The position numbers and the translations under genes are program-made. 64,000 nucleotides of DNA from Candidatus Woesearchaeota archaeon (GTDB taxonomy: Archaea; Nanobdellota; Nanobdellia; Woesearchaeales; JAGVYU01): NCBI GenBank assembly GCA_018303105.1, contig JAGVYU010000061.1:3109-67108 (forward strand). Reading direction: 5' to 3'. Positions 14,906-64,000 of this stretch are shown in pieces. Each line of letters opens with the position of its first letter. Within the stretch, counting starts at the first letter, position 1. The notes under the pieces are model-generated. The model saw only the letters and a program-made list of their open reading frames with translations. It had not been told where the DNA came from and searched no databases.

Positions 14906-15298
14906 ATGTGGGGTTTAGTGGGAAAGATATACCTGATCATTGTGCTTCTTTTTGTGCTGTCGTGCGCCCCTCTAAGCAGAGAATACGTTAACAATTGTGA
15001 ACAATCCGGGGGAGATTATACTTCTGGTTTCTCTGAAACCAAAGGCCAATATTATTTTTGTGAATGTCCAGATGGCAAATACGAATCAGGAGGGATCTGT
15101 CACGATATCGCTGCTCAACAGGTGGAACTCTGCGAAAAAGTATCTAACAAATTTGTAAACTGTGCGGTTGATGGCAGCGAGTGCATATGCACATTTATAG
15201 ATTCTGGAACAGTCTCTTTTTTACCAATTGGAGTATTGGAAACTTCAAATTGTGAATGCTTTGATGGAGGATGTGGATGCGGACCAAACCTAAACTAA
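14906..15298 (+). CDS. Small Cys-rich secreted lipoprotein
   Basis: A signal peptide ends in the lipobox LFVLSC. The protein has 16 Cys and overlaps the start of the giant gene. Confidence 0.4.
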   Translation: MWGLVGKIYLIIVLLFVLSCAPLSREYVNNCEQSGGDYTSGFSETKGQYYFCECPDGKYESGGICHDIAAQQVELCEKVSNKFVNCAVDGSECICTFIDSGTVSFLPIGVLETSNCECFDGGCGCGPNLN

Positions 15299-35328: not shown

Positions 35329-35499
35329 ATGAGCAAAGGAACAGCGTCCATGGGTGTTAAGTCTGGCAAGAAGAATCATATCTATTGCAGACGCTGTGGG
35401 AGAAAGACGTATCACCTTACTCGAAAGCGCTGCTCAAGCTGCGGGTATGGAAAGAGTGCCCGAATCAGAGCATACACGTGGGCTAAGAAGAAGCATTAG
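35329..35499 (+). CDS. rpl37e: 50S ribosomal protein L37e
   Basis: [56 protein letters not shown] is a C4 zinc ribbon typical of L37e. This frame was not listed in the track because of length. Confidence 0.85.
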
Positions 35500-36196
35500 C
35501 GCGTTCTACGCAAAACGATTTTGGCTCGGATTCCTTGATGAGATCACAGGCTGATTCATTCTGCTGGAGCCGGGCGATTCTCGAGATGCATGTCACCCGC
35601 AAGCCGAAATCCTCAATCGTGAGGCATCCTGACGTATTCTGCGTCTTTGTATAAACACGAAATTTACAGCCTTGTGCCTCATATGAATTATCGATGAATG
35701 AGCAGATGGAATCCGTTGTCGTGTTGACTGCAACTTTGTTATAACATTCATTGCGGTCTACGCCTTCATCGACCTCATGGCAGAGCTCTATGTTATTTGT
35801 CGCAATGCCAATATTCTTAAAGCATACATCCGACCAGTATGAGTTCGTGAGGTCATAACAATCATTCCCTGCAAGCTGCTCCTGAGCAACCCCGGCGAAG
35901 CAAAAATTCCTGCGCTTGTCATCCACAACAGATGCACATATCGACTTGTTCATCGTCTGAACGCCTATCTCCGCAGTGCACTGATCCCTGAATTTTTGAT
36001 CCGTCACTTGCGCACAGAGCTCAAGGGAGTGTGCCGAGACCGCGGTGTCAGCATAACAGTTCTGCCTATCCGTGTCTGAAGAGAATTGTTTGCACGGATC
36101 AGGTGTGCACGCTACAAGGAGCGCGAGCATCCCAAAGAGTAATAGTAACCGCATACAGCTGCGGAAAAAAACGAGTTTATAAAAGTTATGGAACAT
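35483..36196 (-). CDS. Cys-rich secreted lipoprotein
   Basis: The signal peptide [16 protein letters not shown] ends in a lipobox, and the protein has about 20 Cys. The true start is probably the internal MRLLL. Confidence 0.5.
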
Positions 36197-36225: not shown

Positions 36226-37929
36226 ATGAAGATCTCGCCCATATTCACATTTGGAATAGTTGTCTTTCTTGCCGCGGTGCTTATGTATGTCAACACGATC
36301 CCAAATGAGTTTGCATGGGATGACCGCGACTTTATTTTTGAGAATCCGCAGATTACGTCGCTCTCAAATGTCCCCAGCTTCTACGTTACAGAGTCAAGCC
36401 ATGGGCTTTGGAGGCCACTGCGCGAAACGGTATACGCATTGACGTATGCTATATGGAAATTGAATCCTGTTGGTTATCATATAAATGGCATTGTGTTACA
36501 TGCGTTCATTTCTTTGTTATGTTACGGTATTACGCTAAGACTTTCCAAAAAACCTATGCTTGCATTATTTACTGGGTTATTGTTTGCAGTGCATCCCCTC
36601 CACACAGACAGAGTCACGAACATGACCGCGGGATTTGACCTCTGGGGGATATTGTTTATGCTCCTTGCATTCTATGTGTTCATTAGATATCGCGAGTCTG
36701 CAAAAATTTCGTTGTATGGAGCAAGCCTCATCATGCTCATACTTGCGTTGTTGGCGTCGGAGGAAGCAGTCGTGTTCGTTCTTCTGCTGCTGCTCTTTGA
36801 TTTTGTGTATACGTATGGTTGGAGCCTCAGAAAAACTGTTGCATCATGGAGATCATATGTCCCGTTCATCCTTATCACGCTGCTCTTTGTTTTTGCGCAC
36901 ATCATGATCGTGGGCAGAGTCGGACGCGCATCACATTATTTTTACAATAGCTTTTTAGCCACACAACTCACGAGCATTAAAGCGCTGGCACTCTATGTTG
37001 GATATTTCTTTCTCCCATTCAAGCTGACGATCCACCATGAACTCGCGGCTACCACGTCATTGCTCAGCATTCCACTGCTCATCTCCACCATTGTGCTGCT
37101 CGCGCTCTTCGTTCTCGTATGGGCATCGTATAAGAAAAACAAAATTATCTTTTTCTCGATCGCGTGGTTTTTCATCACGATGCTCCTGTTCATGAACTTC
37201 CTGCCTAAGCCAACGATCTTTGCTGAACGGTATGCGTATCTCGCGTCATTCGGGTTTTGCCTGGCGGTTGCCTATGGATTACATCAACTAACTTCACAGA
37301 AGAAGTCTAAGTTCCTGGGATTTGCGCTCATTCTTTTGATCGTCATTGCGTTCAGTGCCCGTACGTATGCGCGAAACATGGACTGGCGTGACGAGGAAAC
37401 ACTGCTCGTGAAAACGCTCGAAACCTCCCCACTCAGCACGAGCGCGCACTCCGACATTGGGGAATTCTACAAACGCGCAGGAGATTTTGAAAAAGCGGAG
37501 GAGCATTTGCTTAGAGCCGCAGAATTGTCACGGAATAATTTCCGGGCGCGGGATGAGTTAGGAACACTCTACGCCGAGCAGCAGCGCTATGACCTCGCGG
37601 AACAATACCTTATAGAAGCTATTGATGCCTACCAAGAGGACGATCGCGGGTATTACAAAGGGTACAACGACCTCGGAGTGCTCTATCTGCGCTGGGGAAA
37701 GATTGATGAGGCCATATTCACCCTGAAAAAAGCCATTGCAATTCGGCCAGATTTCGCAAAAGCACATCATGACATGGGGCTCGCATACGCGCAGAACGGA
37801 TTACTCGAGGAAGCGGAGCAGGAAATGCGAACCGCGATCGCGATTAATCCTTATGAACCCATGTATCAAAACAATTTGCGTATCCTTCTAGAAAAACGTA
37901 AAAGCTTAAATACGGAAGAATCGCCGTGA
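36226..37929 (+). CDS. TMTC-like GT-C membrane glycosyltransferase with C-terminal TPR repeats
   Basis: It has about 11 TM segments and a first-loop acidic motif NEFAWDDRDFIFEN (DD/DE as in PMT/TMTC GT-C enzymes), then at least 6 TPR units. The start is taken at MKISPIF, not the upstream GTG. Confidence 0.65.
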   Translation: MKISPIFTFGIVVFLAAVLMYVNTIPNEFAWDDRDFIFENPQITSLSNVPSFYVTESSHGLWRPLRETVYALTYAIWKLNPVGYHINGIVLHAFISLLCYGITLRLSKKPMLALFTGLLFAVHPLHTDRVTNMTAGFDLWGILFMLLAFYVFIRYRESAKISLYGASLIMLILALLASEEAVVFVLLLLLFDFVYTYGWSLRKTVASWRSYVPFILITLLFVFAHIMIVGRVGRASHYFYNSFLATQLTSIKALALYVGYFFLPFKLTIHHELAATTSLLSIPLLISTIVLLALFVLVWASYKKNKIIFFSIAWFFITMLLFMNFLPKPTIFAERYAYLASFGFCLAVAYGLHQLTSQKKSKFLGFALILLIVIAFSARTYARNMDWRDEETLLVKTLETSPLSTSAHSDIGEFYKRAGDFEKAEEHLLRAAELSRNNFRARDELGTLYAEQQRYDLAEQYLIEAIDAYQEDDRGYYKGYNDLGVLYLRWGKIDEAIFTLKKAIAIRPDFAKAHHDMGLAYAQNGLLEEAEQEMRTAIAINPYEPMYQNNLRILLEKRKSLNTEESP

Positions 37930-37933
37930 ATGC

Positions 37934-39610
37934 ATGAAAAAGCACATTCTGTCCATCATTCTCATCCTCGTCCTAACGCTCATCGCGTACGGGAATATTT
38001 TTTCGAACGAATTCGTTTGGGATGATCGGATTTATCTTGAGGAGAATCTTGTCATAAGGTCTTTAGCGAACACGCCCACCTTTTTTGTAACTCCTACACA
38101 CGGGAATCTCTACAGACCACTGCGCAGTGTCCTGCAGGCGTTCGTTTTTTCCATATGGGAGTTTGATGTGTTCGGATACCACCTTAATGCGTTGCTTTTA
38201 CACATGATAGCGAGCGTTCTCGTTTACGTTATTGTGCTCAAGCTATTTCAAAAAAGAAAACTGGCGCTCTTCACCGGAATTTTATTCGCCGTGCATCCTA
38301 TCCACACAGACAGAGTCACAAATATGACTGCGGGATTTGATCTGCTTGGAATTGTACTCATGCTTGCCGCGTTTCTCGCATATCTTCTCTATAAGGAATC
38401 CCGAAAGAAGATTCCACTAGTAATCAGCATTGTGTTATTCGTTCTCGGGCTTTTCTCAAGCGAGGAGGCGTTCATGCTGCCATTCCTCATCTTGCTCTAT
38501 GAGTTAGCGTTTGCGAAAACAACGCTCATGGAAAGAGCCCGTGAACTTGCCAAGCATAAGGCGCTCTATGTGTTTCCCGCGCTTCTTGTTCTTTACTTGA
38601 TCATTCGCATCGCCGTCACAGGAAGTCTTGGACGTGCTGCCCAATATCCTGCCGGAACATTCTCAGCAACGATAGTCATCACGATCAAAATCCTCGCTCA
38701 TTACCTCGGCCTGCTCATCCTTCCCATCAATCTGTCGCTTCAGCGCGTAGTTCCCGTGGCAACATCGCTCTTTGATCCTCTTGTGTTTATCTCTCTCCTA
38801 CTACTTCTTGCATTGATTGCTGTCGCATTTTGGTCGCGAACGCGACGGCCCATCATCTTCTTCGCGATCGGATGGTTTTTTCTCACGCTAGTCCCCTTCA
38901 TGAATATCCTCCCAAACTTCTCGCTCATGGAAGAACGGTATACATACGTTGCAAGCATCGGTTTTTGTTTGCTTATCGCATACGCATTCACGCTTGCATA
39001 TCAAAAAAAGGAGTGGAAAATCCCTACGCTTGTCGTTTTCGCATTGGTTTTGATCCTCTACACGGTGGGAACGATGCAGCGTAACGCGGAATGGAGAGAC
39101 GACATCACGCTCTGGGAACGCACGGTAATCACCTCGCCGAACAGCGCACGGGCTTGGGACAACCTTGGGCAGAGTTACGAAGCACTCGGCAGGTTTGATG
39201 ACGCGCTTGAGGCGATTGATACGTCGTTAACAATAGACGAGAATAACGCATTCGCGCATAACAACCTTGGCATTGTATTTGCAGAAAAAGGCCTCTATAA
39301 TTATTCCATCGCTGAGTTTCTCATCGCTATTGAGCTTGAGCCTAATTACGCTCGGGCGTATGACCATCTGGGGCTTGCATATCTGCGATTGAATGATACG
39401 GACAAGGCCATAGCGGCATTCGCAACCGCGATCCAACTTGAACCGGGACTTTACAAAGCATACAATGACCTGGGAACAGCATTAGTGTATACAGGAGAAA
39501 TGGACCGCGCTGAACTCGCGTTTCAGCAAGCGCTCAAAATCAACCCGCGCTATGAAGCAGCGCAGAAGAACCTGGAATCATTGCAGCGTCTGAAGGCGAA
39601 GACGCAATGA
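37934..39610 (+). CDS. TMTC-like GT-C membrane glycosyltransferase with C-terminal TPR repeats (tandem paralogue)
   Basis: Same architecture as the upstream gene. It carries NEFVWDDRIYLEEN, HPIHTDRVTNMTAGFDLLG (compare HPLHTDRVTNMTAGFDLWG in the upstream copy), and TPRs at the C-terminus. Confidence 0.65.
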   Translation: MKKHILSIILILVLTLIAYGNIFSNEFVWDDRIYLEENLVIRSLANTPTFFVTPTHGNLYRPLRSVLQAFVFSIWEFDVFGYHLNALLLHMIASVLVYVIVLKLFQKRKLALFTGILFAVHPIHTDRVTNMTAGFDLLGIVLMLAAFLAYLLYKESRKKIPLVISIVLFVLGLFSSEEAFMLPFLILLYELAFAKTTLMERARELAKHKALYVFPALLVLYLIIRIAVTGSLGRAAQYPAGTFSATIVITIKILAHYLGLLILPINLSLQRVVPVATSLFDPLVFISLLLLLALIAVAFWSRTRRPIIFFAIGWFFLTLVPFMNILPNFSLMEERYTYVASIGFCLLIAYAFTLAYQKKEWKIPTLVVFALVLILYTVGTMQRNAEWRDDITLWERTVITSPNSARAWDNLGQSYEALGRFDDALEAIDTSLTIDENNAFAHNNLGIVFAEKGLYNYSIAEFLIAIELEPNYARAYDHLGLAYLRLNDTDKAIAAFATAIQLEPGLYKAYNDLGTALVYTGEMDRAELAFQQALKINPRYEAAQKNLESLQRLKAKTQ

Positions 39611-39999
39611 GAGAAAGAATTTCTGCCATCATCATCAAAGACAAAAAGATCCTCCTCGTCACAGGATATGATGAATCCTTTTATTGGACGCCGGGAGGGA
39701 AAGTGGAACCAGGAGAATCGCACCAAGAGGCGATGAAGAGGGAACTTAAAGAGGAGATATCCGTCAAACTCGTTGAGATGCGCCCATATTGTGCGTACAA
39801 GGCAACGAACGAGACAACCGGACAACCTCAAAAAGTTCACTGTTATCTTGTTGAGATTAAAGGAACTCCTTCCCAAAAAGCGGAGCTGACAAAAAGCATG
39901 TGGTGTTCATCTCAGGATATTTTGACTGGAAAGACCAAAGTATCCAAAAGGATATCTTCTCAACTCTTGCCAAGACTAATGAAGGATAAAATTCTTTGA
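39607..39999 (+). CDS. NUDIX hydrolase
   Basis: The Nudix box is GGKVEPGESHQEAMKRELKEEISV (Gx5Ex7REUxEExGU). Confidence 0.8.
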   Translation: MRERISAIIIKDKKILLVTGYDESFYWTPGGKVEPGESHQEAMKRELKEEISVKLVEMRPYCAYKATNETTGQPQKVHCYLVEIKGTPSQKAELTKSMWCSSQDILTGKTKVSKRISSQLLPRLMKDKIL

Positions 40000-40050
40000 G
40001 ATGCTTCTAAGAAATGTTTATAAGGGCTGTGCAATTTATGATTTTAGTAA

Positions 40051-40134
40051 GCGGGGATGCCGGAGAGGTCAAACGGGCTACGTTCAGGGCGTAGTAGCTT
40101 AGTGCTTACGGGGGTTCGAATCCTCCTCCCCGCA
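40051..40134 (+). tRNA. tRNA-Leu (anticodon CAG), class II with long variable arm, no encoded CCA
   Basis: The acceptor stem pairs GCGGGGA with TCCCCGC. The D arm is CCG/CGG around an 11-nt loop. The anticodon stem is CTACG/CGTAG with loop TTCAGGG, giving CAG with G37. The variable arm has an AGC/GCT stem. The T arm is GGGGG-TTCGAAT-CCTCC. The discriminator is A. Confidence 0.75.
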
Positions 40135-40258
40135 GCCTTTTTACAAAAAAGTCTGGCCAAAAAGAAGGGAGTTGAACTCACGTTCAAGCTCCCTAAGTTT
40201 AATTCGTGGGCTCGAGCGGTAGCGAGACCCACAGACGCCAGCGGGCTTCCGCTGGTGG

Positions 40259-40275
40259 GAATCCTCCTCCCCGCA
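40259..40275 (+). repeat. Direct repeat of the tRNA-Leu 3' end (GAATCCTCCTCCCCGCA; other copy at 40118-40134)
   Basis: An exact 17-nt repeat. The 3' flank is similar in both copies (A-rich linker plus hairpin), but the 5' side has no acceptor or T-arm partner, so the second copy is not a functional tRNA. Confidence 0.5.
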
Positions 40276-40359
40276 ATCCTTTTAAAAAAAGGCTTGACCG
40301 AAAAAAGAGGGTTGCTCTCACGAGCAAGCCCTCTGAGTGTTTTTTGAGGGCTTGAGGTG

Positions 40360-41121
40360 TTATTTACTTACTTTTTTGGCGATCACAAGAAAGCGTTCAT
40401 CCGTAAACGCTAGGAGCTCACCTTGATCTAGACGAGTTTGGAGGTTGTACAGTACTGACTTATATTTGTCTACTGTAAATCCAGGCACAATCCACGGGAT
40501 CGCCTTGAGAAAATACACGATTGCGCCAACATCATGGAAGACCCGTTTGCCGGACCATTCCTCCGACTTCACAATGGTGAGACCATCTGAAGTCAGATTT
40601 TTCTGAACTTTCGCTGCTCCCCAGTCCGATTTTTTCTTAACTCTGAAGAGTGAAATCAAATCATGGAGGTTTTTACCTCCGACTTGCTGCGTACAAAAGA
40701 CTCCGTTAGGCTTTAGGAGACGCCTTATTTCGACAGCGTTAAAGGTGCCATGTCTGTTCAGAATGACATCAAAATACCCCTCTGGAAATGAAAGAGGGGC
40801 GTCCCCCATACAATGAATAACGTGTATGCCGAGCGGTGAAAGCCTTCTCTTTGCCAATTCATAATTTGGTGCGTATCCCTCTGTCGCATACATTTTCGTT
40901 GGAAGCGGCTTGAGAGAGCTGAGAAATTCGCCTCCCCCCGTTTCCAAATCAATTGCTGACTCAGCATTTGCCAAATACTCGCGCACAATATCGGTGTAAT
41001 CCCAAGGAGGTGATTCAGATGCCATTCGGTTCCGAATGTAAGAAAAATCCCAACCGTGCATAGGTGCAGATTCATCATGCCTCCACCGCTCAAGCAAAAT
41101 TTCAGCACTGTTTTTCTTCAT
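40360..41121 (-). CDS. Class I SAM-dependent methyltransferase
   Basis: It has a glycine-rich motif I region (IDLETGGGEFL) and size and fold-level features of a Methyltransf_11/23-type enzyme. Confidence 0.55.
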   Translation of the reverse strand: MKKNSAEILLERWRHDESAPMHGWDFSYIRNRMASESPPWDYTDIVREYLANAESAIDLETGGGEFLSSLKPLPTKMYATEGYAPNYELAKRRLSPLGIHVIHCMGDAPLSFPEGYFDVILNRHGTFNAVEIRRLLKPNGVFCTQQVGGKNLHDLISLFRVKKKSDWGAAKVQKNLTSDGLTIVKSEEWSGKRVFHDVGAIVYFLKAIPWIVPGFTVDKYKSVLYNLQTRLDQGELLAFTDERFLVIAKKVSK

Positions 41122-41837
41122 TTACCGTATCTCCCCATCACATCATTCCACCGTATCCTCAAAAGATCAAGCATCATCTTCATGGGATCTCTTAAAATTC
41201 GCACTTTAGAGTTCGGATCATTTCTCCATGACACCGGAACCTCTTTGATGGAATAGCCATGTTTTTGTGCAAGGTAGAGTAATTCGACGTCAAACGCCCA
41301 GCCATGCAAACGCTGCTGTTTGACAAGCTTCTTTGCAATAGCTGTTTTGAACAGTTTAAATCCGCATTGAGTATCCTGTATTCCCTTTACTCCCAGCATG
41401 CGAACGAGTAATGGGAAGAGTTTTCCCATTGAGCTTCTCAGGAAAGGTTGCGGCTTCGTGATTTTCGATTCTGGAAGGTTCCTTGAGCCGACCACAATAT
41501 CATATTTAAGATACTGGGAAAACACATCAAGGGTATGTATGGGTGTGGAATGGTCCGCGTCGCAGAACAGTACGTGAGGCATTTTTGCAGCAAGAATTCC
41601 TTTTTTTACTGCGCTGCCTTTACCCTCATTACTGCTTCCACGAATGACTCGTATAGGTGCCTTGCTTTGGGTTGCGGCGTTACGAGCAACAGACGCCGTG
41701 CTATCCGCGCTTCCGTCATCAACTACAATTATCTCGTAAACGATATTTCGCTTCCTGCAGTATGCTATGATATCTGTCAATGTCTTTCGAATTCGTTTCT
41801 CTTCATTATATGCGGGAATAACGATTGAAAGCCTCAC
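41118..41837 (-). CDS. Family 2 glycosyltransferase (dolichyl-phosphate sugar synthase-like)
   Basis: MRLSIVIPAYNEE...IIVVDDGSADST is the GT-A DxD-type N-terminus, and a conserved QCGFK-type block follows. It overlaps the upstream MTase gene by 4 nt. Confidence 0.8.
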   Translation of the reverse strand: MRLSIVIPAYNEEKRIRKTLTDIIAYCRKRNIVYEIIVVDDGSADSTASVARNAATQSKAPIRVIRGSSNEGKGSAVKKGILAAKMPHVLFCDADHSTPIHTLDVFSQYLKYDIVVGSRNLPESKITKPQPFLRSSMGKLFPLLVRMLGVKGIQDTQCGFKLFKTAIAKKLVKQQRLHGWAFDVELLYLAQKHGYSIKEVPVSWRNDPNSKVRILRDPMKMMLDLLRIRWNDVMGRYGK

Positions 41838-42285
41838 ACAGTAACTAAAAGTTAGGTTATATAAATATTATATGAAGCGATTTACTAATTACTAGTAAGA
41901 ATTGCTGGGTATCGAATATAATCCGAAACATTTTATACTCTAAAGGGATCCTTATAAAAGGAAGAGCAAAATAAGCGCGGTTCCCGCAAGAAAAGGGGGG
42001 TCTTGGTCAAACACCATCAAAAAGTAACAACGGTCTATAAACTGCCTTTCTGGCATTAATAGCGATCAAGGTTGCCTTGTACTGCATAAAAAAGCCATTT
42101 TTTGCGAAATGTTTATAAGCCAGTTTTTTCTCTATGCCTAAATAGCCAGTTAGAACTATCAAATATAGGTTCTCCAATGGGTATATTGGAGTGTCTAGAG
42201 TACGCAGAAAGGCTTAAATACGAAAAACCTTTCACTGGCATAAAACTCAATGAGAGGGGTGTAACAATCACCCAACCACAAGGAG

Positions 42286-44910
42286 GTGTGTAGATTGAGA
42301 CTAAGTAAAGCGATTAAGAAGGTCGCTGCAGTCGGCATTGGTGCATCAATGATCGGCGCTACACTATTCGGTGCAGCAGCAGCAAACCTAAGCGAGTATC
42401 CGTCGCCGTTCGTCATGGACGGTAAGTTTAACGGCATTCTCGTTGTAGGAACTGGAGGAACGGATGCGGCCGGACTCGCAGCCGATATTATCGGCGTGAC
42501 CGACATCATCAGCAGCCTGCAGTTCGCAAGCACGACACCTGGAACCGGTGCGAAGAAATCAGTAACGGTACAGGGAGACTCGTGGAAAGTAGGAACCGCA
42601 ACGAAGAAGCTTGAGATAAGCAACGAATGGACGAACAGTTCTGGAAGCCGAGAAAACTTCAAGAGCCAAATTGATTTCATCGATGATGGTGATTTGGACG
42701 CATTGAAGTCGGGAAGTGTTGACAACACGAAAGGAAACGCGCAGTACAACCAATACTTGCGATTCCGCAACTCAACAACCGGCGGCGCGAAAGACACAGG
42801 ATATGTCGTGTACAAGGAAGATAGCGACAACAATGTCGGAGACTTCCTCTTCTTTAAGAGCGGCCAAGAAATAGCGCAATATGAGATGGAGTTTACGTCT
42901 TCATTTGACTCAGACGTTGAAGATTCCGGTGGAGCAGTTACTTCAACGGGAACGTATCTGTCTGATTACGAAGATGAGACGATCACCCTCTTGGGCAAGG
43001 AGTACACAATCGTGAAAGCACGAGTACCTACCGCTGGAGCTTGGCATGGCATGGAGCTCACGTTGATGGGTGGAGCCGTAAAGGACATCCTCCAGGAAGG
43101 CGAGACAAAGACGTATACTATCGCTGGCAAGCCGTACGAGGTTACTGTTGACGCGATCACGGACCAAGGCACAATCATTGCCAAGTTCACCGTGAACGGC
43201 GAGTCGACAAAATCCATTTCGGATGGTGACTCGGACAAACTTGCAGACGGAACAGAGATTGGCGTAACCGATCTTATTCCGAACGAGGCAGGAGACGTCA
43301 CGCAGGATCTCGTTGAGTTCTTCATCGGAGCCCAAAAGGTCGTGTTGAAGGATACAAACATCAGCGTTGTTGGAACAGGAGACACCGCGATCAAGGTGAA
43401 TGATGAAAGCATTGATGGATCTCTTGTAACCATTAAGGGTACACCAACAGCAACTGAGAGCCAGGTCAACAACATCCTCGTGAACATGGATGCTGATGAT
43501 GACTACTATGTCCCTGCAGGCAAGAAACTCAGTGAAGTCATTGCAGCAGAGGGTGATGAGAAAGAAGTTCTCTTCACGAACAACTGGGACATCGAGTACC
43601 TTGGCTTAGAGGAAGCAGAGGCAGAAGAGATCAGCATCAAGACGAGCGGCAAAGACAAGTATAGGCTCAGCTTTATGGACTGGGGCGGAAATCTTGTCCA
43701 AGCACCATTAGCGTACGCATCCGCAGCAAGTGTCCTGAAGATGGGAGACGATGATGACGACTTTATCATCAACGAAAGCCGAAACGTCAGCAAAGATGAC
43801 TACTTCATCATAACGGACGCGACGAAAGATGCTGGAGAGCGACCAACGTACCTGCTGCGCTACAAGGGAGCTGACAAGTCAACGGACGAAAACCCGAAGT
43901 TTAAAATCGAGAACGTCGGTTCAAAAGAGACTCTAGAAAAGACGTACACAGCAGCTGGCGGATCAGCTACGGCTACCTTCAATATTGGAGGAGGCTCATA
44001 TAAGGTTGAGAACCACGAAGCCATTACAAGCAACGACTTCTCAATCAAGGTCGACCTTGATGGAGACGGAACCATTAACGAGTCGAACGCGGTCTCAATA
44101 ACCACACGTGCAGGTGCCCAAATAGCGATAGCGGGCAACCAGACAGGTGGAGCCGCGACAATTGATCTTGCCGATAAGCTAACGGTAACGATCAGCACAC
44201 CTGATTCGGACGACTACGAGGACCTGACACCAGCAAACATCCAATACAACATCTCAGCAACGTCTGATACAGAAGTTGACCTGACAAAGTTGGATGTCTA
44301 TAGCCTTGTGACACCAGACGACGAGGACAACGTGCAGTACGGATACAACTCACTTGGTGCGTTCATTAAATACACAAACCCATCAAGCGACCCCGATGAG
44401 CTCATCATCGACTATCCAGAAGCGCAGAGACTGCCTCAGGTGTACATCACCTCGGGAGCATCCTCGAGTTCAGGTGGCGTAGGAGCGGGCTCTGAAAACG
44501 TCAACATCAATAAGATTGAAGTTGGCGCTGCAAAGCTCGACAAGGACGTCAGCTCAGCGGATCTCGCGGCGAACAACGTGCTATCCATCGGTGGATCTTG
44601 CGTCAACGCTATCAGCGCAGAGATCATGGGTCTTGAAGCAGGAACCTGTGGCGCGGCCTCAGGAATCCCGCAAAACAAGGCTTTGATCAAGCTGTTCGAG
44701 AACGGTGAGAAGGTTTCCATGGTCATCGCAGGTTGGACTGCTGAAGACACACAGAGAGCATCGAGAGTCCTTGCAAATTACGAGGACTATGCACTCAGTG
44801 GCATGGAAGTCGAAGTGACTGGAACGAGCTTGTCTGACATCTCCGTAGGAGCACCTTCCCCAGTGATGGAAGAAGAAGAAGCCCCTGCTGAAGACGAAGC
44901 AGCTGAATAA
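42286..44910 (+). CDS. S-layer protein of the Methanococcales/Thermococcales type (S_layer_N plus S_layer_C)
   Basis: A signal peptide is followed by ILVVGTGGTDAAGLAADIIGVTDIISSL, the S_layer_N hallmark. The C-terminus carries ALIKLFENGEKVSMVIAGWTAEDTQRASRVLANYEDY, the S_layer_C hallmark, and an acidic tail. A GGAGGTG Shine-Dalgarno-like element lies 5 nt upstream. The start may instead be the TTG at 42295. Confidence 0.8.
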   Translation: MCRLRLSKAIKKVAAVGIGASMIGATLFGAAAANLSEYPSPFVMDGKFNGILVVGTGGTDAAGLAADIIGVTDIISSLQFASTTPGTGAKKSVTVQGDSWKVGTATKKLEISNEWTNSSGSRENFKSQIDFIDDGDLDALKSGSVDNTKGNAQYNQYLRFRNSTTGGAKDTGYVVYKEDSDNNVGDFLFFKSGQEIAQYEMEFTSSFDSDVEDSGGAVTSTGTYLSDYEDETITLLGKEYTIVKARVPTAGAWHGMELTLMGGAVKDILQEGETKTYTIAGKPYEVTVDAITDQGTIIAKFTVNGESTKSISDGDSDKLADGTEIGVTDLIPNEAGDVTQDLVEFFIGAQKVVLKDTNISVVGTGDTAIKVNDESIDGSLVTIKGTPTATESQVNNILVNMDADDDYYVPAGKKLSEVIAAEGDEKEVLFTNNWDIEYLGLEEAEAEEISIKTSGKDKYRLSFMDWGGNLVQAPLAYASAASVLKMGDDDDDFIINESRNVSKDDYFIITDATKDAGERPTYLLRYKGADKSTDENPKFKIENVGSKETLEKTYTAAGGSATATFNIGGGSYKVENHEAITSNDFSIKVDLDGDGTINESNAVSITTRAGAQIAIAGNQTGGAATIDLADKLTVTISTPDSDDYEDLTPANIQYNISATSDTEVDLTKLDVYSLVTPDDEDNVQYGYNSLGAFIKYTNPSSDPDELIIDYPEAQRLPQVYITSGASSSSGGVGAGSENVNINKIEVGAAKLDKDVSSADLAANNVLSIGGSCVNAISAEIMGLEAGTCGAASGIPQNKALIKLFENGEKVSMVIAGWTAEDTQRASRVLANYEDYALSGMEVEVTGTSLSDISVGAPSPVMEEEEAPAEDEAAE

Positions 44911-44950
44911 GGCTAACGCCTTTTTTTCTTTTTATTTTTTTTATTTAACT
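44911..44950 (+). terminator. Oligo-T transcription terminator after the S-layer gene
   Basis: The sequence is gcctttttttctttttattttttttattt. Consecutive T runs are the usual archaeal intrinsic termination signal. Confidence 0.5.
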
Positions 44951-45242: not shown

Positions 45243-45983
45243 GTGCTCAAAACCCCTAAAAAGGAGGTTTCTCATATGAAAACAGGACTATGGATACTGT
45301 GTGTACTTACATTGTTTATTGTGGCATGCGCGCCAACACCGCCTGAAGCGCCGCCCGCTCCAGAACCCGCGGCTCCACAGGAACAGGTTACAGAGCCTGT
45401 AACACCCGCCCCGGAACCTACTAAGGAGATCGACTCCCCAACACGGGAATTCCTTGCCAAACATGATAAAGTGACGAGTTATAGCTACGGATTCGGCGAG
45501 CTCAACCAGCGTGACAAGATTAACGTAAAAGGTGACTTCATACGCATTGATCTCAGCGAGCGCAGAGGCAAGAATGATGAGGAGCGCTATGATGTTGTTT
45601 TCCTCGACGTGAAGGCGAAAACAGCGAAGGGAACGTGCGAAGCGAGCATCTGTGAGCCGAATTATTACAAAACGTATGTCGAGGCCGTCTATGGAGCGCA
45701 TGACCTAGAAAAGCTGCCATTGGATTACTTGGGAGATATCGCATATGCGGAGCTGGGCAAGAACACGCAGCTTCTTGAGAATAGAAAAACACAGGAAGTC
45801 CTTGTCGAGATGAAGGATGGCAGCACAGGAACGATGTGGCTGGACGAGTTTTATGGCTTCCCGTTCCAGATCGAGCTGACAAAAAACGACAAGAAAACAA
45901 CGATAACGTTCTATGATGTAGCCATAAACAGCCTCAACGACGATGACGTGAAGGTGCCTTCAAGCTTTACGCTGCGCCAATGA
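45243..45983 (+). CDS. Secreted lipoprotein, hypothetical
   Basis: The signal peptide ends in the lipobox LFIVAC, and a Pro/Glu-rich linker follows. Confidence 0.5.
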   Translation: MLKTPKKEVSHMKTGLWILCVLTLFIVACAPTPPEAPPAPEPAAPQEQVTEPVTPAPEPTKEIDSPTREFLAKHDKVTSYSYGFGELNQRDKINVKGDFIRIDLSERRGKNDEERYDVVFLDVKAKTAKGTCEASICEPNYYKTYVEAVYGAHDLEKLPLDYLGDIAYAELGKNTQLLENRKTQEVLVEMKDGSTGTMWLDEFYGFPFQIELTKNDKKTTITFYDVAINSLNDDDVKVPSSFTLRQ

Positions 45984-46576
45984 ACGGACTCCAACATTTT
46001 GCCCTGATCACAGGGCTTCTTATTCTTATTGCTTCATTTCTTATTTTTCAGAATGCGTTGACGGACAGGCCGCCCCCAGAGCCGCAGACAACTCCTCTCG
46101 ACTCTGTGATTCCTGAAGTCCCTTTAGCGCCGCCCGTGCCGGAAGAGGTATTTATTCCAGAAGATTCTCAGCAAGAGGTCTTTGTCGAGATAAAAAACCT
46201 TCAATTCCAGCCTAAGGTCATAACCATACTGCCCGGGACAACCGTAACCTGGATTAACAAGGACGAGCTTCCGGGAAGCCCGGGAAGGGCAAGAACACAC
46301 ATGATAAAAGGATTCGCCGGATTCAGAAGCGAACGCCTTGAACTCAACCAAAGTTACAGCTACACGTTCACTGAGGTCGGGGAATACCGCTACATAGATA
46401 CAATCTTCACAAAACAAATGGAAGGAACGGTTGTCGTTTCCGAGAAGGCTCTGGATGCTGTCACGGGAAATGTCATTCTGAATGTGCCATCGTCTCTCGG
46501 CCCGGGAACGTTAGTCATGGTCGTATTCTTCGTGAGCATGGCCGGAGCGCTCATTGTTACTCACAGACATGCTTAA
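45980..46576 (+). CDS. Cupredoxin-like beta-sandwich protein with a C-terminal PGF-CTERM-like sorting tail
   Basis: It has an N-terminal TM segment and a PE-rich linker. The block ITILPGTTVTWINKDE...YSYTFTEVGEYRYID is paralogous to the 50089..50574 protein. The C-terminus GPGTLVMVVFFVSMAGALIVTHRHA reads as Gly-Pro-Gly, a TM helix, then a basic tail. Confidence 0.45.
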   Translation: MNGLQHFALITGLLILIASFLIFQNALTDRPPPEPQTTPLDSVIPEVPLAPPVPEEVFIPEDSQQEVFVEIKNLQFQPKVITILPGTTVTWINKDELPGSPGRARTHMIKGFAGFRSERLELNQSYSYTFTEVGEYRYIDTIFTKQMEGTVVVSEKALDAVTGNVILNVPSSLGPGTLVMVVFFVSMAGALIVTHRHA

Positions 46577-47769
46577 ACGGCAAAACCATAGAAGATGTTG
46601 TGCTTGCTCCGCGTGATCTTCACTTTGACTTTTTGCTTACCCTGAGGACATTTCAGCACGGTAATGCAGCGATCCTTCGCAACCGCAATGACCTCCCCGG
46701 GCAGTCTCCCTGGACATTTCACGTCTGCTTCAACAATATCCCCTTTCTGAAAAGGCTTAGGAAGCTTCGCGCTTGGCACAATGTCAAATTTTGGATGCAG
46801 GTCAAATCCCTTCTCGCGCTCGAGTTCATCGAGGTAGTTATAGAAAGCGTTCCACGGGAGTTCTTTAGCCGGCTTTTTTCCATACTCATACGATAAGAAA
46901 TTCTGAATCCCGATTTTCACTGGAAATTTTCCCTGAACGGACTTCGCAAAGTCTATAATCAACGGGATTTCTGCGTCATTAATGCCCATCATGAGAACCG
47001 GGGCAATGACAATCTCAAAATACTTAGCGGCGTAGCGGACATTGTCTTTAATATGCTCAATGTTAATAGGAGCGCCTTCAACTTTTTTTGCCTTCTCTGG
47101 ATTCATGGCATGCAGGGAAACGCTGCACTGGTCTAATCCTGCCACTGCTAATTCATCGACGAGCTTTTTGCTTAAGAGCACGGCATTCGTGTATATCGCG
47201 ACGGTTTTTACCCCTTTTATTTTTTTAAGGTCACGCACGAGCGGGGCAAGATCATGGTACAATGTCGGATCCCCATGCGGATTAATCACGATATGAATAT
47301 TCTCCGTATTCTTGAACGCGACAACCTTTTCAGTCTCCTGAACAAGATAGTCTTTTTCAACAATGAAATCACGCTCGCGCCTTCCCATATCCACCGAACA
47401 GAAGATGCAATCGATATTGCAACCGGTTATAGGCTTGAGGTCGATGACATTCGTGTTTCTGTCCACAATGCCAAAGTAGAGCGTGCCCAGAAGCGGAATC
47501 CCCGAGTTTTTATGGATGTATGTTGTCTCATTTTTCTTGATCCTGTTTATTAAGTGGGGAAAATGCTTTTGCAGAAGGGTATTGAGCGCATGCTCAGCCA
47601 CATACTGCTTTTCGGTTTTGAACACGAGCTCTTTTTTCCTCACTTCAACGATGCCTGAAGCCTCAATTTCATCCTGAGGCACATCAAAATAGTACAGCGT
47701 GAGGAAGTTAAACCGCACATATTCTGGCTTTGCATCGAACGTAAAGTCCTGAAAGGAGAGTGTAACCAT
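46573..47769 (-). CDS. Radical SAM protein with a C-terminal TRAM-like domain
   Basis: The CxxxCxxC cluster motif is ITGCNIDCIFCS. The C-terminus GDIVEADVKCPGRLPGEVIAV...KVKI looks like a beta-barrel TRAM fold. Confidence 0.65.
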   Translation of the reverse strand: MVTLSFQDFTFDAKPEYVRFNFLTLYYFDVPQDEIEASGIVEVRKKELVFKTEKQYVAEHALNTLLQKHFPHLINRIKKNETTYIHKNSGIPLLGTLYFGIVDRNTNVIDLKPITGCNIDCIFCSVDMGRRERDFIVEKDYLVQETEKVVAFKNTENIHIVINPHGDPTLYHDLAPLVRDLKKIKGVKTVAIYTNAVLLSKKLVDELAVAGLDQCSVSLHAMNPEKAKKVEGAPINIEHIKDNVRYAAKYFEIVIAPVLMMGINDAEIPLIIDFAKSVQGKFPVKIGIQNFLSYEYGKKPAKELPWNAFYNYLDELEREKGFDLHPKFDIVPSAKLPKPFQKGDIVEADVKCPGRLPGEVIAVAKDRCITVLKCPQGKQKVKVKITRSKHNIFYGFAV

Positions 47770-56999: not shown

Positions 57000-57860
57000 A
57001 TGGAATTGAAGAATCACCGGATACTTCGGAAATATAATGATATTTTTGAATTTATTCGAAAGTGCAATAAGAAAATCGCAGGTTTTGCTATGGCTGTTTT
57101 CACAGTATCCGAAACATATATATACAACGCTCTTAGAATTTTCTCAGGTGAGGATATGGCATTGCAACTGAAGAAAATACCGAAAAACCCGATTATTATC
57201 GAAGGATTCCCGGGATTTGGCCTTGTTGGCACGATCACGACGGAATTTCTCATGGATCATCTTAAAGTCGAAAAGATTGGAAAGATCACGTTTGACAACA
57301 TGCCTGCGATAGCGGCCGTGCATGAGGGCAAGCTTGTGGAGCCCATGGGAATCTTCTATAACAGCGATCATAATCTCGTGCTTGTGCACAGCATTCACGC
57401 TGCCCAGGGCAGCGAATGGGTAATGGCTGAGTCTATTGCGGAGCTCGCAAAAAAAGTCAGCGCGAAAGAAATCATCAGCATTGAGGGTGTAGGCACAGCA
57501 AATGCGACAGGTGAGAGAACTTTCTATTTTACGAAGAATCCTGAGTTGGAGAAGAAGCTCAAAGCGATTACGCAGCCTTTGAGGGAAGGGATTATTATGG
57601 GCGTAACAGGAGCTGTTTTGCTCCATGTGGATAAAGTGCCCATAAGCTGCCTTTTCGCCGAAACTACGGCAGAGATGCCTGACAGCAAGGCAGCTGCACG
57701 CATTATAGGGCTTCTTGACAAGTATCTTGGACTTAAGATAGATACTGGGCCATTGTTGAAACAGGCAGAGCAGTTTGAGGCGAAGCTTAAGGGAATACTC
57801 TCACAAAGCAAGCAAGTTGAGGAAATTAGCGAAAAAAAGAAGATGAGCTATGTAGGTTAA
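57000..57860 (+). CDS. PAC2-family protein (proteasome assembly chaperone-like). The true start is probably an internal Met.
   Basis: PIIIEGFPGFGLVGTITTEFL is the PAC2 hallmark G.PG.G.VG. A hydrophobic-Tyr near the C-terminus (SYVG) is weakly reminiscent of HbYX. Confidence 0.5.
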   Translation: MELKNHRILRKYNDIFEFIRKCNKKIAGFAMAVFTVSETYIYNALRIFSGEDMALQLKKIPKNPIIIEGFPGFGLVGTITTEFLMDHLKVEKIGKITFDNMPAIAAVHEGKLVEPMGIFYNSDHNLVLVHSIHAAQGSEWVMAESIAELAKKVSAKEIISIEGVGTANATGERTFYFTKNPELEKKLKAITQPLREGIIMGVTGAVLLHVDKVPISCLFAETTAEMPDSKAAARIIGLLDKYLGLKIDTGPLLKQAEQFEAKLKGILSQSKQVEEISEKKKMSYVG

Positions 57861-59137: not shown

Positions 59138-59806
59138 ATGTGGGTTGTTTTCATGGCTAGAACGTATAATGAGTATTATCTCGGATGGCAGGAGATTAAC
59201 AGGATCATAGCCTGTGCCAAGAACCTCAAAGAGCGGGTAATTCTAAAGATTCTGGCGAGAACAGGCATGCGAAGATTCGAGCTTGCAAATCTTCGCGTAA
59301 AAGACGTCGATTTTGACCGCAAGCGCATCTATATCAGCAAGGGAAAAGGAGGAACTGACGAGGATCCAAAATCGAGGATCGTTCCTATCGACGATGACAC
59401 CCTTCAAGATATCAAGTTTTATCTCGAAGGACGCCGGGCCGGAATATTGATCCAGAGCAATAAAAAAGCGCATGACGGCATCTCTTTATCCGCAATAAAC
59501 AGGATTACCGAAGGGGCTGCTGAACGGGCAGGAATCCGGAATCCTAATCCAAAGCTTAAGCATCTCAATCCCCATATCTTCAGGCACAGTTTCTCACGGC
59601 TCAGCCTCATGGAGGGCATTCCCTTCAACATTGTGCAGAAAATTGTTGGACACGCCGATGCGCGAACAACGCTGCAAATGTACGGAGTACCGTCGATAAA
59701 TGACGCTCAGCATATGTACAACGAAAAGCTGACTATGCGCTTTCACCAAAAAGTGAGCCTTGAGGAAGATAACAAGCTTTCAAAATTTACGTCTGACAGA
59801 TCGTAA
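59138..59806 (+). CDS. Minimal tyrosine recombinase/integrase (catalytic domain only)
   Basis: The catalytic residues are R in TGMRRFEL, K in ISKGKGG, HxxR in HIFRHSF, the second R in HADARTT, and the nucleophile Y in LQMYG. No N-terminal SAM-like core-binding domain is present. Confidence 0.8.
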   Translation: MWVVFMARTYNEYYLGWQEINRIIACAKNLKERVILKILARTGMRRFELANLRVKDVDFDRKRIYISKGKGGTDEDPKSRIVPIDDDTLQDIKFYLEGRRAGILIQSNKKAHDGISLSAINRITEGAAERAGIRNPNPKLKHLNPHIFRHSFSRLSLMEGIPFNIVQKIVGHADARTTLQMYGVPSINDAQHMYNEKLTMRFHQKVSLEEDNKLSKFTSDRS

Positions 59807-62147: not shown

Positions 62148-62792
62148 GTGAATGTGATGGATCAAAAAACCATGTCAAAAGGGGCTTTGGCAATAGCTCT
62201 AAGTAAACTAGATGTTTTTCCCGAAGCAAAAGTGAGAGTTGAGCAATACCCCACAGACCCTGAAGTTGCCGCTGAAGTGCTCTGGGATGCCCATATTGCC
62301 GGGGACATGGAAAACAAGGCGATATTGGACCTCGGAGCCGGAACGGGCATCCTAGGCCTTGGCTGCCTCCTTTTGGGAGCTCGAAAAGTGACATTCATCG
62401 ACGCTGATCAAGCGGCTCTGGCCATCGCTGAAAAGAACTATGCTAAGCTCAAAAGTGAGATTTCAGGAAAAGCTGCCTTTGTTGCGATGGATATCCACAA
62501 ATTCCAAGAGGCTGCAGACGTCGTCGTCGAGAACCCGCCCTTCGGCACAAAGACAAAGCACGCTGACAGGGAGTTTCTGGAGAAAGCATTCACATTGGCT
62601 CCCGTGATTTACACGTTTCATAAGGCATCAACAAGCGCGTTTATCAATCAGCTCGCTACGCAGAGAGGGTTTAACGTCGAGAAAACACAGCGTTTTGCGT
62701 TTCCGCTCAAAAGGACAATGCCGTTCCACGCCAAGAATATCAAGAGGATCTCCGTGGACTGCTTCCGATTACGGAAACCACAACGCTTTTAA
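62148..62792 (+). CDS. METTL5-like putative rRNA/RNA N6-adenine methyltransferase (COG2263 type)
   Basis: Motif I is ILDLGAGTGILGLG. The NPPF catalytic motif is VVENPPFGTK. Confidence 0.7.
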   Translation: MNVMDQKTMSKGALAIALSKLDVFPEAKVRVEQYPTDPEVAAEVLWDAHIAGDMENKAILDLGAGTGILGLGCLLLGARKVTFIDADQAALAIAEKNYAKLKSEISGKAAFVAMDIHKFQEAADVVVENPPFGTKTKHADREFLEKAFTLAPVIYTFHKASTSAFINQLATQRGFNVEKTQRFAFPLKRTMPFHAKNIKRISVDCFRLRKPQRF

Positions 62793-63648: not shown

Positions 63649-64000
63649 ATGGAAAACGTGCCTCGTCACATTGGCATCATCATGGACGGCAATCGCAGAT
63701 TCGCGAAACGCCTCATGCTCAAACCCTGGAAAGGGCATGAGTGGGGCCCAAAAAAGCTTGCTGAGATCCTGGAATGGTGCAAGGAGTACGATATTCATGA
63801 ACTTACGTTGTACACGTTCTCCGTCCAGAACTTCAACAGGCCGAAAGAAGAGTTTGACTATCTTATGAACCTCTTTCGGGAAGAATTTGACAAACTCAAA
63901 GATGATAAGAGGATTCATGAAGAACAGATTCGCGTGAATGTGATAGGCAGAACATGGATGTTTCCCAAAGATGTGCAGGATAAGATTAAAGAAATCATGG
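63649..64000 (+). CDS. uppS: Undecaprenyl/dehydrodolichyl diphosphate synthase (cis-prenyltransferase). The 3' part lies outside the window.
   Basis: HIGIIMDGNRRFAKR ... GHEWG ... ELTLYTFSVQNFNRP are the UPPS signature blocks. The frame is open to the window end. Confidence 0.85.
   Translation, partial: MENVPRHIGIIMDGNRRFAKRLMLKPWKGHEWGPKKLAEILEWCKEYDIHELTLYTFSVQNFNRPKEEFDYLMNLFREEFDKLKDDKRIHEEQIRVNVIGRTWMFPKDVQDKIKEIM

Follow-up and report, generated by a model that had tools for sequence, protein, structure and literature searches.

TMTC-like glycosyltransferases encoded near an S-layer gene in a woesearchaeon: candidates for archaeal protein O-glycosylation

Archaeal surface layer (S-layer) proteins are O-glycosylated, and to our knowledge no enzyme has been assigned to this modification. 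Which genes might encode such an enzyme is the question raised by a locus of Candidatus Woesearchaeota archaeon (GenBank assembly GCA_018303105.1, contig JAGVYU010000061.1), contained in a stretch of 64,000 nucleotides (nt) that we call the window. The organism is uncultured, and the names of homologues assign it to the DPANN archaea (Woesearchaeota/Nanoarchaeia). Two adjacent genes, A and B, were originally predicted to encode glycosyltransferases resembling animal TMTC1-4, which are protein O-mannosyltransferases of the endoplasmic reticulum (ER) that modify cadherins and protocadherins and belong to the PMT clan of GT-C enzymes; the start of an S-layer gene lies 2.7 kb downstream of the pair. 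Every feature that this prediction had placed in the window was found where it had been placed. Homology places A and B, as archaeal representatives, in the TMTC branch of the PMT-clan GT-C glycosyltransferases, and we give about even odds (a probability of roughly 0.5) that they act as TMTC-type protein O-glycosyltransferases that use a lipid-phosphate-linked sugar, with the S-layer protein as the prime acceptor candidate.

Homology of A and B to the animal TMTC enzymes

The proteins encoded by A and B are 39% identical to each other over 536 columns, and both combine a membrane domain (about residues 1-390 in A) with C-terminal tetratricopeptide repeats (TPR), for which strong matches extend from about residue 395 to the end. 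Their positions in the window are as follows.

36226-37929, + strand: gene A, TMTC-like GT-C glycosyltransferase, 567 amino acids (open reading frame [ORF], TPR matches, TMTC profile)
36304-36327, + strand: NEFAWDDR motif of A, residues 27-34, read from the sequence; DD is residues 32-33
37934-39610, + strand: gene B, TMTC-like GT-C glycosyltransferase, 558 amino acids
38006-38029, + strand: NEFVWDDR motif of B, residues 25-32; D30 and D31 kept in all 63 aligned homologues

As had been predicted, the motif NEF(A/V)WDDR is present in the first loop of both proteins, followed by the TPR arrays. Since the DD pair is kept in 63 of 63 aligned homologues, this motif is a conserved site and not a chance occurrence. 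The invariant residues of the alignment are, in the numbering of B, D30, D31, P62, H83, H121, P122, Y257, and P264, with Y60, R61, E177, and Y338 being nearly invariant.

The check originally proposed for these proteins, a search with the Pfam profiles PMT_2 and DUF1736, gave a divided answer. PMT_2 (cutoff, 26.1 bits) matched B with 30.2 bits and A with 18.8 bits, so only B passes; DUF1736 (PF08409) matched neither protein, even when the membrane domains were searched alone at an E value of ≤10, a search in which PMT_2 was the sole family found. Profiles built from the two families themselves gave a far clearer result. A hidden Markov model (HMM) made from the membrane-domain part of the 63-sequence homologue alignment was compared with animal TMTC membrane-domain sequences taken from a published alignment (Additional file 1 of PMC7801869), and it matched eight animal TMTC1-4 sequences (human, fly, zebrafish, and frog) with 164 to 205 bits over HMM positions 12-391, whereas ArnT (5EZM) and yeast Pmt1 (6P25) from the same source file gave no match at an E value of ≤10. 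In the reverse search, an HMM of the eight animal TMTCs matched A with 109.3 bits (residues 12-384) and B with 98 bits, and hhalign aligned the two families over 384 columns with a probability of 100% and an E value of 2.6e-55. By BLASTP, B is 28% identical to zebrafish TMTC3 over 423 columns and 25% identical to human TMTC3 over 426 columns. On these comparisons, the membrane domain of A and B is clearly homologous to that of animal TMTC1-4 over its whole length. With reciprocal profile scores of 98 to 205 bits, the hhalign result, and the modeled GT-C fold described below, the designation of A and B as TMTC-like GT-C/TPR enzymes is strongly supported, and more firmly than the Pfam test alone would allow.

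Prokaryotic TMTC homologues are known to exist (PMC7801869), and A and B add two members to a family that is already known and very large. With the membrane domain of B as the query, the search retrieves 65,717 representatives of 50%-identity clusters at an E value of ≤1e-3, 33,226 at ≤1e-10, and 2,050 at ≤1e-30. Database pipelines already guess at the function of this family, some members of which have been labeled "protein O-mannosyl-transferase" by the Joint Genome Institute (JGI). What we observe for A and B is homology, fold, motif conservation, and gene order, and it is from these that we infer the donor, acceptor, sugar identity, and activity considered below.

The membrane-domain HMM returned no match at an E value of ≤10 among all PDB sequences, which means that no structure of a close relative has been solved. 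The AlphaFold2 model of B is of high confidence (predicted local distance difference test score, 96.2; predicted template modeling score, 0.93). A Foldseek search with the whole model returned only TPR proteins; compared with solved structures, the B model scored 19.2 against Pmt4 (9e61; 322 residues aligned), 18.7 against AglB (3waj), 18.3 against STT3B (6s7t), 18.1 against ALG12 (9s6t), and 16.5 against Pmt2 (6p2r). The modeled membrane domain is of the GT-C fold. The helix order in the model and the K/R-rich loops that alternate with motif-bearing loops in A and B both point to a TMTC-type topology, with a cytoplasmic N terminus, 11 membrane helices, and the TPR domain outside. In this arrangement, the conserved residues would face outward, namely, DD in loop 1, (S/T)H..(Y/W)RP, HPxHT...D, S-E-E, and (A/E)ERY.

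A closer comparison is offered by the seven TMTC motifs, M1 to M7, as defined by Eisenhaber et al., which are listed here with the DUF1736 loop and their counterparts in A and B.

M1: DD in TMTC, DD in A and B; kept, in the first outside loop, aligned with TMTC FV(F/H/Y)DD
M2: SHKSYRP in TMTC, SSHGLWRP in A, THGNLYRP in B; largely kept (fly TMTC1 has SHGSWRP)
M3: GRAD (RxD) in TMTC, AGFD in A and B; aspartate kept, arginine lost
M4: KE(T/Q)xxT in TMTC, SEE in A and B; glutamate kept, lysine lost
M5: DW in TMTC, HH in A, QR in B; not kept
DUF1736 loop: F-S-x-x-D-N-P segment in TMTC; absent in A and B
M6: PxxP...SN in TMTC, LLFMN in A, VPFMN in B; partly kept, with the second proline in B only and the asparagine in both
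M7: AERxxY in TMTC, AERYAY in A, EERYTY in B; kept

M1 and M7 are fully kept in A and B, and M2, M3, M4, and M6 are kept in part. The absence of the F-S-x-x-D-N-P segment accounts for the failure of the DUF1736 profile. Since more distant bacterial homologues retain GRAD and SKE, and two of them (P0099 and P0101) carry PF08409, the DPANN proteins are best described, from their alignment, as a trimmed, divergent branch of the TMTC-like family.

Given that A and B lack M5 as well as the basic residues of M3 and M4, and that TPR domains often serve as assembly scaffolds, the two could be imagined as nonenzymatic proteins that are anchored in the membrane by a retained GT-C-like domain and help to assemble the S-layer as TPR scaffolds or chaperones. 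However, the DD pair, the histidines of HPxHT, E177, and the ERY motif are invariant or nearly so in the 63 homologues, which argues for an active site under selection and makes a purely structural role very improbable.

The S-layer gene and its neighborhood

The gene that makes A and B of interest for envelope glycosylation is delimited by three features.

42280-42288, + strand: Shine-Dalgarno-like AAGGAGGTG, read from the sequence, 6 nt ahead of the TTG at 42295
42295-44910, + strand: S-layer protein, 871 amino acids (PF05124 in a C-terminal fragment; homologues)
44921-44946, + strand: oligo-T run that immediately follows the S-layer stop codon, read from the sequence

The naming of this protein as an S-layer protein holds at the family level, as indicated by S_layer_C in its C terminus and by its homologues. 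Its isolated C-terminal 174 amino acids match Pfam S_layer_C (PF05124) with 29.4 bits (cutoff, 23.9), and its homologues score 37 to 57 bits for this domain. The full-length protein had no Pfam match, since a large insertion splits the S_layer_C domain between the N and C termini, and a profile search of the PDB was also empty. The family consists of DPANN proteins of about 830 to 910 amino acids; PF05124 is present in more than 110 of 120 homologues, two of which NCBI lists under the name S-layer protein. The 871-amino-acid protein, which belongs to this family, has a hydrophobic signal sequence at its N terminus and is acidic (142 D+E versus 66 K+R).

Both the Shine-Dalgarno-like element and the oligo-T terminator that had been predicted for the gene are present, the latter resembling an archaeal-type terminator, but the start codon needs revision. 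Although the ORF extends from 42286 to 44910 (874 amino acids), the TTG at 42295 is the better start because AAGGAGGTG lies 6 nt before it and because the JGI gene call and the N termini of homologues agree with it. Further upstream, a TATA-like GAAATGTTTATAAG occurs at 42108-42123, about 170 nt before the S-layer start, as well as at 40011-40026, about 25 nt before a tRNA-Leu gene; this shared motif points to a strong archaeal promoter and, for the S-layer mRNA, to a long leader.

To place the gene order of the window in context, 13 genome loci and 80 metagenome loci encoding S-layer homologues were collected, and their flanks were searched for the genes of the window. Adjacency was counted in the 47 loci that extend 3 kb or more upstream of the S-layer gene, the close relatives of the window being excluded. 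In 7 of these 47 loci, the S-layer gene is preceded by a codirectional TMTC-like gene that ends no more than 3 kb before it, which corresponds to a density of 0.041 TMTC-like genes per kb in the upstream 3 kb, about 13 times that in the other 661 kb of flanks (0.003 per kb). In one further locus, L098, whose S-layer protein is 62% identical to that of the window, an A-type TMTC-like gene lies 400 nt upstream of the S-layer gene, and a B-type gene 5 kb further up is translationally coupled to a gene for a GT2-TPR fusion. This 439-amino-acid fusion (4846-6165 of L098, + strand) overlaps the stop codon of the B-type gene by 4 nt, an unusual pairing of a cytoplasmic GT2-TPR protein with a GT-C/TPR enzyme; it is related to the glycosyltransferase family 2 (GT2) protein of the window in the first 50 residues only.

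A neighbor-joining tree of the membrane domains, a rough one made by one distance method and carrying no support values, groups A with the S-layer-adjacent copies P0079/L098a and P0086/L042, and all directly S-layer-adjacent copies fall together with A in one superclade. B groups with the B-type copy of L098, and PAC2-adjacent copies of other genomes lie elsewhere. Because A and B fall into different clades, both of which are also represented in L098, where they are not in tandem, the two genes are old paralogues; the tandem duplication suggested by the original prediction is not borne out as a recent event. A itself belongs to an orthologous group that is usually placed directly upstream of the S-layer gene. 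This recurrent placement makes the A-type enzymes testable candidates for archaeal O-glycosylation.

In the genome studied here, B and the following four genes came between A and the S-layer gene.

39607-39999, + strand: NUDIX hydrolase, 130 amino acids (NUDIX, 56.1 bits)
40051-40134, + strand: tRNA-Leu(CAG), found by ARAGORN
40360-41121, - strand: S-adenosylmethionine-dependent methyltransferase, 253 amino acids (Methyltransf_11, 25.2 bits)
41118-41837, - strand: GT2 glycosyltransferase, 239 amino acids (Glycos_transf_2, 95.3 bits)

With a gap of only 4 nt between the stop codon of A and the start of B, and a 4-nt overlap of the NUDIX gene with the stop codon of B, these three genes look like a single transcription unit. 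The NUDIX gene, which is also found beside B in the close relatives L001 and L018, is probably cotranscribed with B; a role as GDP-mannose hydrolase was considered for its product and set aside, as its best family matches are of the MutT/NudG type and all lie below the cutoffs. The tRNA-Leu gene separates this unit from that of the GT2 and methyltransferase genes, which overlap by 4 nt. The GT2 gene is indeed 1.5 kb past the B stop codon, as had been predicted, but it is on the opposite strand, and the pair diverges from the S-layer gene across a spacer of 457 nt. In L018, a 92%-identical relative, the methyltransferase gene is absent and the tRNA-Leu gene is inverted. The methyltransferase was therefore rejected as a sugar modifier and is a variable gene that is probably not integral to the system.

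The tRNA-Leu region shows further signs of rearrangement. The 3' end of the tRNA gene, ttcgaatcctcctccccgca (40114-40133), recurs some 125 nt further on as gggaatcctcctccccgca (40258-40276), and the roughly 60 nt behind each copy resemble each other (all within 40051-40342), which looks like a small rearrangement or an integration hot spot.

Sugar supply, proposed reaction, and acceptor

A lipid-phosphate-sugar donor would require a synthase, and the GT2 protein is one candidate supplier. Its best solved relative is the dolichyl-phosphate mannose synthase (DPMS) of Pyrococcus furiosus (5mlz; E value, 1.4e-14; residues 1-204), followed by GtrB and ArnC, and among the NCBIfam families it matches PpgS, ArnC, the haloarchaeal dolichyl-phosphate (Dol-P)-hexose transferase, and AglJ. 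It thus resembles the polyprenyl-phosphate-sugar synthase type (DPMS/GtrB/ArnC-like), in agreement, by similarity only, with the original description as Dol-P-sugar-synthase-like. The protein shares the GT-A catalytic domain and the DAD motif with P. furiosus DPMS, GtrB, ArnC, and Haloferax AglJ and AglD; unlike P. furiosus DPMS, GtrB, and ArnC, which have membrane-spanning regions, its 239 residues include no membrane-spanning segment. Its NCBIfam scores (55 to 60 bits) are far below the cutoffs (325 to 529) of all these curated synthase families, so that the similarity to DPMS, GtrB, and ArnC, significant as it is, does not assign a specific activity.

Three genes elsewhere in the window, also noted in the original prediction, bear on the supply of sugars and carriers, two of them being partial.

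About 2-1000, - strand: DegT-family sugar aminotransferase, partial, running off the window start (DegT_DnrJ_EryC1, 301 bits)
1047-2012, + strand: Gmd, GDP-mannose 4,6-dehydratase (GDP_Man_Dehyd, 345 bits)
63649-64000, + strand: UppS-type cis-prenyltransferase, partial, running off the window end (Prenyltransf, 112.3 bits)

The presence of Gmd shows that the organism both produces and consumes GDP-mannose, and the UppS-type enzyme would make a polyprenyl carrier. GT2, Gmd, and UppS fit a supply of GDP-mannose and polyprenyl carrier, none of them being specifically tied to A or B. Neither AglB nor a flippase was found among the window ORFs scanned.

Considering these data, we propose the following model. 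First, a GT2 enzyme at the cytoplasmic face, the one encoded at 41118-41837 being one candidate, would use a nucleotide sugar to load a hexose onto dolichyl or polyprenyl phosphate, and the lipid-phosphate-sugar would be flipped to the outer face. There, the GT-C domain would move a single sugar onto Ser/Thr hydroxyls of exported, folded envelope proteins; in this scenario, the acceptor hydroxyl and the phosphate of the donor would be brought into place by the DD loop and the arginine of ERY, and the TPR domain would hold the folded acceptor. For A, the prime acceptor candidate would be the S-layer protein, because several other Woesearchaeota/Nanoarchaeia have an A orthologue immediately ahead of the S-layer gene. 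A and B probably differ in acceptor or donor.

Several observations weigh against this model, and they lie both in the proteins and in the gene order. The lysine of M4 and the arginine of M3, proposed donor-phosphate binders in TMTCs, are replaced in A and B, and neither the metal-binding DW of M5 nor the DNP of the DUF1736 loop is present; with these phosphate and metal motifs diverging, the donor chemistry may differ from that of TMTC. Furthermore, Ser/Thr-rich stretches are absent from the S-layer protein, and its 9 N-x-S/T sequons are no excess over the 7.6 ± 2.5 found in shuffled sequences; on these counts, we dropped the notions that it is rich in sequons or carries Ser/Thr-rich linkers. 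Divergent motifs M3, M4, and M5 in the enzymes, and nine sequons with no Ser/Thr cluster in the S-layer protein, would also fit active GT-C enzymes whose acceptor is a glycan, adding a terminal sugar to an N-glycan (lipid linked or on the S-layer protein) or acting on another envelope polymer or lipid. A precedent is Haloferax AglS, a PMT-like mannosyltransferase that uses dolichyl-phosphate mannose and acts on the S-layer N-glycan (PMC4973528), and the eukaryotic ALG3/9/12 enzymes are similar. However, the homology of A and B is strong and specific to TMTCs and not to ALG-type enzymes, with ArnT and Pmt1 giving no match, and a large outside TPR domain, which ALG and AglS-type enzymes lack, is a hallmark of the protein-directed TMTC, TMEM260, TfpW, and OGT. 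We therefore consider a glycan acceptor rather unlikely.

With respect to gene order, 40 of the 47 S-layer loci have no adjacent TMTC-like gene, and S-layer adjacency is limited to one part of the TMTC-like family. An unrelated radical-SAM gene is a more constant S-layer neighbor than the TMTC-like genes, so shared ancestry and inherited gene order could explain much of the adjacency signal. The GT2 gene is on the strand opposite to A, B, and the S-layer gene and neighbors the latter in no lineage but that of the window itself (L005 and L018), and the methyltransferase gene partnered with it is a recent insertion. GT2 was thus rejected as a conserved partner, the only other instance being an unrelated, 27%-identical GT2 in L017. 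The coherent glycosylation neighborhood of the original prediction accordingly stands in one part, the adjacency of TMTC-like and S-layer genes (7 of 47 loci plus L098), and not in the other, given the GT2 distribution, the methyltransferase missing from L018, and the lack of AglB or a flippase among the ORFs scanned.

It is conceivable, then, that A and B are protein O-glycosyltransferases of other exported proteins, such as pilins, lipoproteins, or a giant protein encoded at 15271-20067, and that the S-layer adjacency has simply been inherited. The many loci with no adjacent copy and the strong synteny by descent of the radical-SAM gene would agree with this, as would the adjacency of some family members to unrelated genes (e.g., PAC2 in L002 and L004), the huge, multicopy nature of the family, and the bacterial analogue TfpW, which modifies a pilin. 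Mere inheritance is harder to reconcile with the roughly 13-fold density in the 3 kb upstream of the S-layer gene, where the TMTC-like genes are always codirectional, and with the adjacent copies forming one clade even though the S-layer proteins encoded beside them are just 43 to 62% identical to that of the window. We regard this alternative as unlikely and retain O-glycosylation with the S-layer protein as prime acceptor candidate as our preferred reading.

The radical-SAM gene (46573-47769, - strand; 398 amino acids; Radical_SAM, 86 bits) deserves mention in its own right, as it is the most constant S-layer neighbor among loci L008 to L084. Its homologues, of 39 to 47% identity, are usually convergent with the S-layer gene and 0.1 to 3 kb downstream of it; this gene order may simply have been inherited, or it may point to a modification related to the S-layer. 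In addition, the window contains PAC2 (57000-57860), a phage-type integrase (59138-59806), and an MTS methyltransferase (62148-62792) in the order seen in L002 and L004. In those two loci, a TMTC-like gene directly follows PAC2, and the corresponding slot in the window holds only a small ORF, so the PAC2-linked paralogue appears to be absent or replaced.

The giant secreted protein (15271-20067, + strand) has 1,598 amino acids, is rich in Cys and Asn, and has weak PA14, thrombospondin type 3, and Ig-like matches. It carries 39 N-x-S/T sequons, versus 27.7 ± 4.9 in shuffled sequences; it looks adhesin-like and could be another glycosylation target. Lipoprotein-processing enzymes are poorly known in archaea, and two observations touch on them. 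A 358-amino-acid protein (10607-11683, - strand) fuses a lipoprotein signal peptidase II domain of the bacterial type (Peptidase_A8, 126.8 bits) to a serine hydrolase domain, and two exported proteins (35483-36196, - strand; 45243-45983, + strand) have lipobox-like signal ends, with the residue sequences LLVAC/TPDP and FIVAC/APTP.

Comparison with known glycosyltransferase systems

The animal TMTC enzymes are poorly understood and are linked to brain malformation and hearing loss. Our literature searches found no description of archaeal TMTC-like O-glycosylation enzymes, and we consider A and B, on the strength of their homology, reasonable candidates for such enzymes; the locus thus offers two candidate enzyme genes and a candidate acceptor. 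New here are the link to TMTC despite the failed DUF1736 test, the trimmed DPANN subfamily, and the recurrent position of one TMTC-like orthogroup immediately before the S-layer gene among DPANN archaea. A more far-reaching idea, possible but doubtful, is that the A-type enzymes of Woesearchaeota/Nanoarchaeia are archaeal protein O-glycosyltransferases that, at the cell surface, transfer hexose from Dol-P-hexose to Ser/Thr residues of the S-layer protein. Domain-directed O-glycosylation of the TMTC type would in that case have begun long ago as a function of the prokaryotic envelope and would have been relocated to the ER by eukaryotes later on. If our preferred reading is true, A and B would be the first identified archaeal protein O-glycosyltransferases and would provide a simple prokaryotic model for the animal TMTC enzymes; if not, they are ordinary members of a very large prokaryotic GT-C/TPR family.

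Like A and B, animal TMTC1-4 have a cytoplasmic N terminus, 11 helices, and a C-terminal TPR domain on the noncytoplasmic side, and they share F-x-(W/F)-DD, (S)H..(Y/W)RP, FAxHPxHTE/D, the loop 3 glutamate, P..SN of helix 9, and AERxxY. The differences are a sequence identity of just 23 to 28%, a shorter helix 7-8 loop (DUF1736) in A and B, and longer TPR arrays in the animal enzymes, compared with about 4 to 5 repeats in A and B. Moreover, the animal enzymes act in the ER, and in an archaeal host, which has none, A and B would act at the cell surface.

The PMT/POMT enzymes (GT39; yeast Pmt1, Pmt2, and Pmt4 and mycobacterial Pmt) resemble A and B in the acidic pair in loop 1 and through the weak PMT_2 match, but they differ in having a MIR domain, where A and B have TPR in place of the loop 5 beta-trefoil; neither MIR nor PMT (PF02366) was matched in A or B by Pfam. 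TMEM260/DUF2723 enzymes also join a GT-C membrane domain to a TPR-like domain, have many prokaryotic homologues, and carry out protein-domain-specific O-mannosylation (PMC10214176). Pfam DUF2723 did not match A or B, the motifs of which fit TMTC instead.

A functional parallel is known from bacteria. In Pseudomonas aeruginosa, pilin is O-glycosylated by TfpW, the gene of which lies beside pilA (bioRxiv 10.1101/2020.04.19.049825). By description, it shares with A and B the GT-C type, a cytoplasmic N terminus, 11 predicted helices, a DDX motif in an outer loop, and a C-terminal TPR domain on the periplasmic side, and the Y-x6-P of its outer loop 4 matches the invariant Y257-x6-P264 of the A/B family, again by description and not by alignment. 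As a pilin O-arabinofuranosyltransferase, TfpW has features of its own, namely, a decaprenyl-phosphate-arabinofuranose-type donor, the formation of oligomers, and a pilin acceptor. Nevertheless, its gene directly adjoins that of its protein acceptor, a precedent that supports the logic of A and B acting on a protein encoded in their neighborhood.

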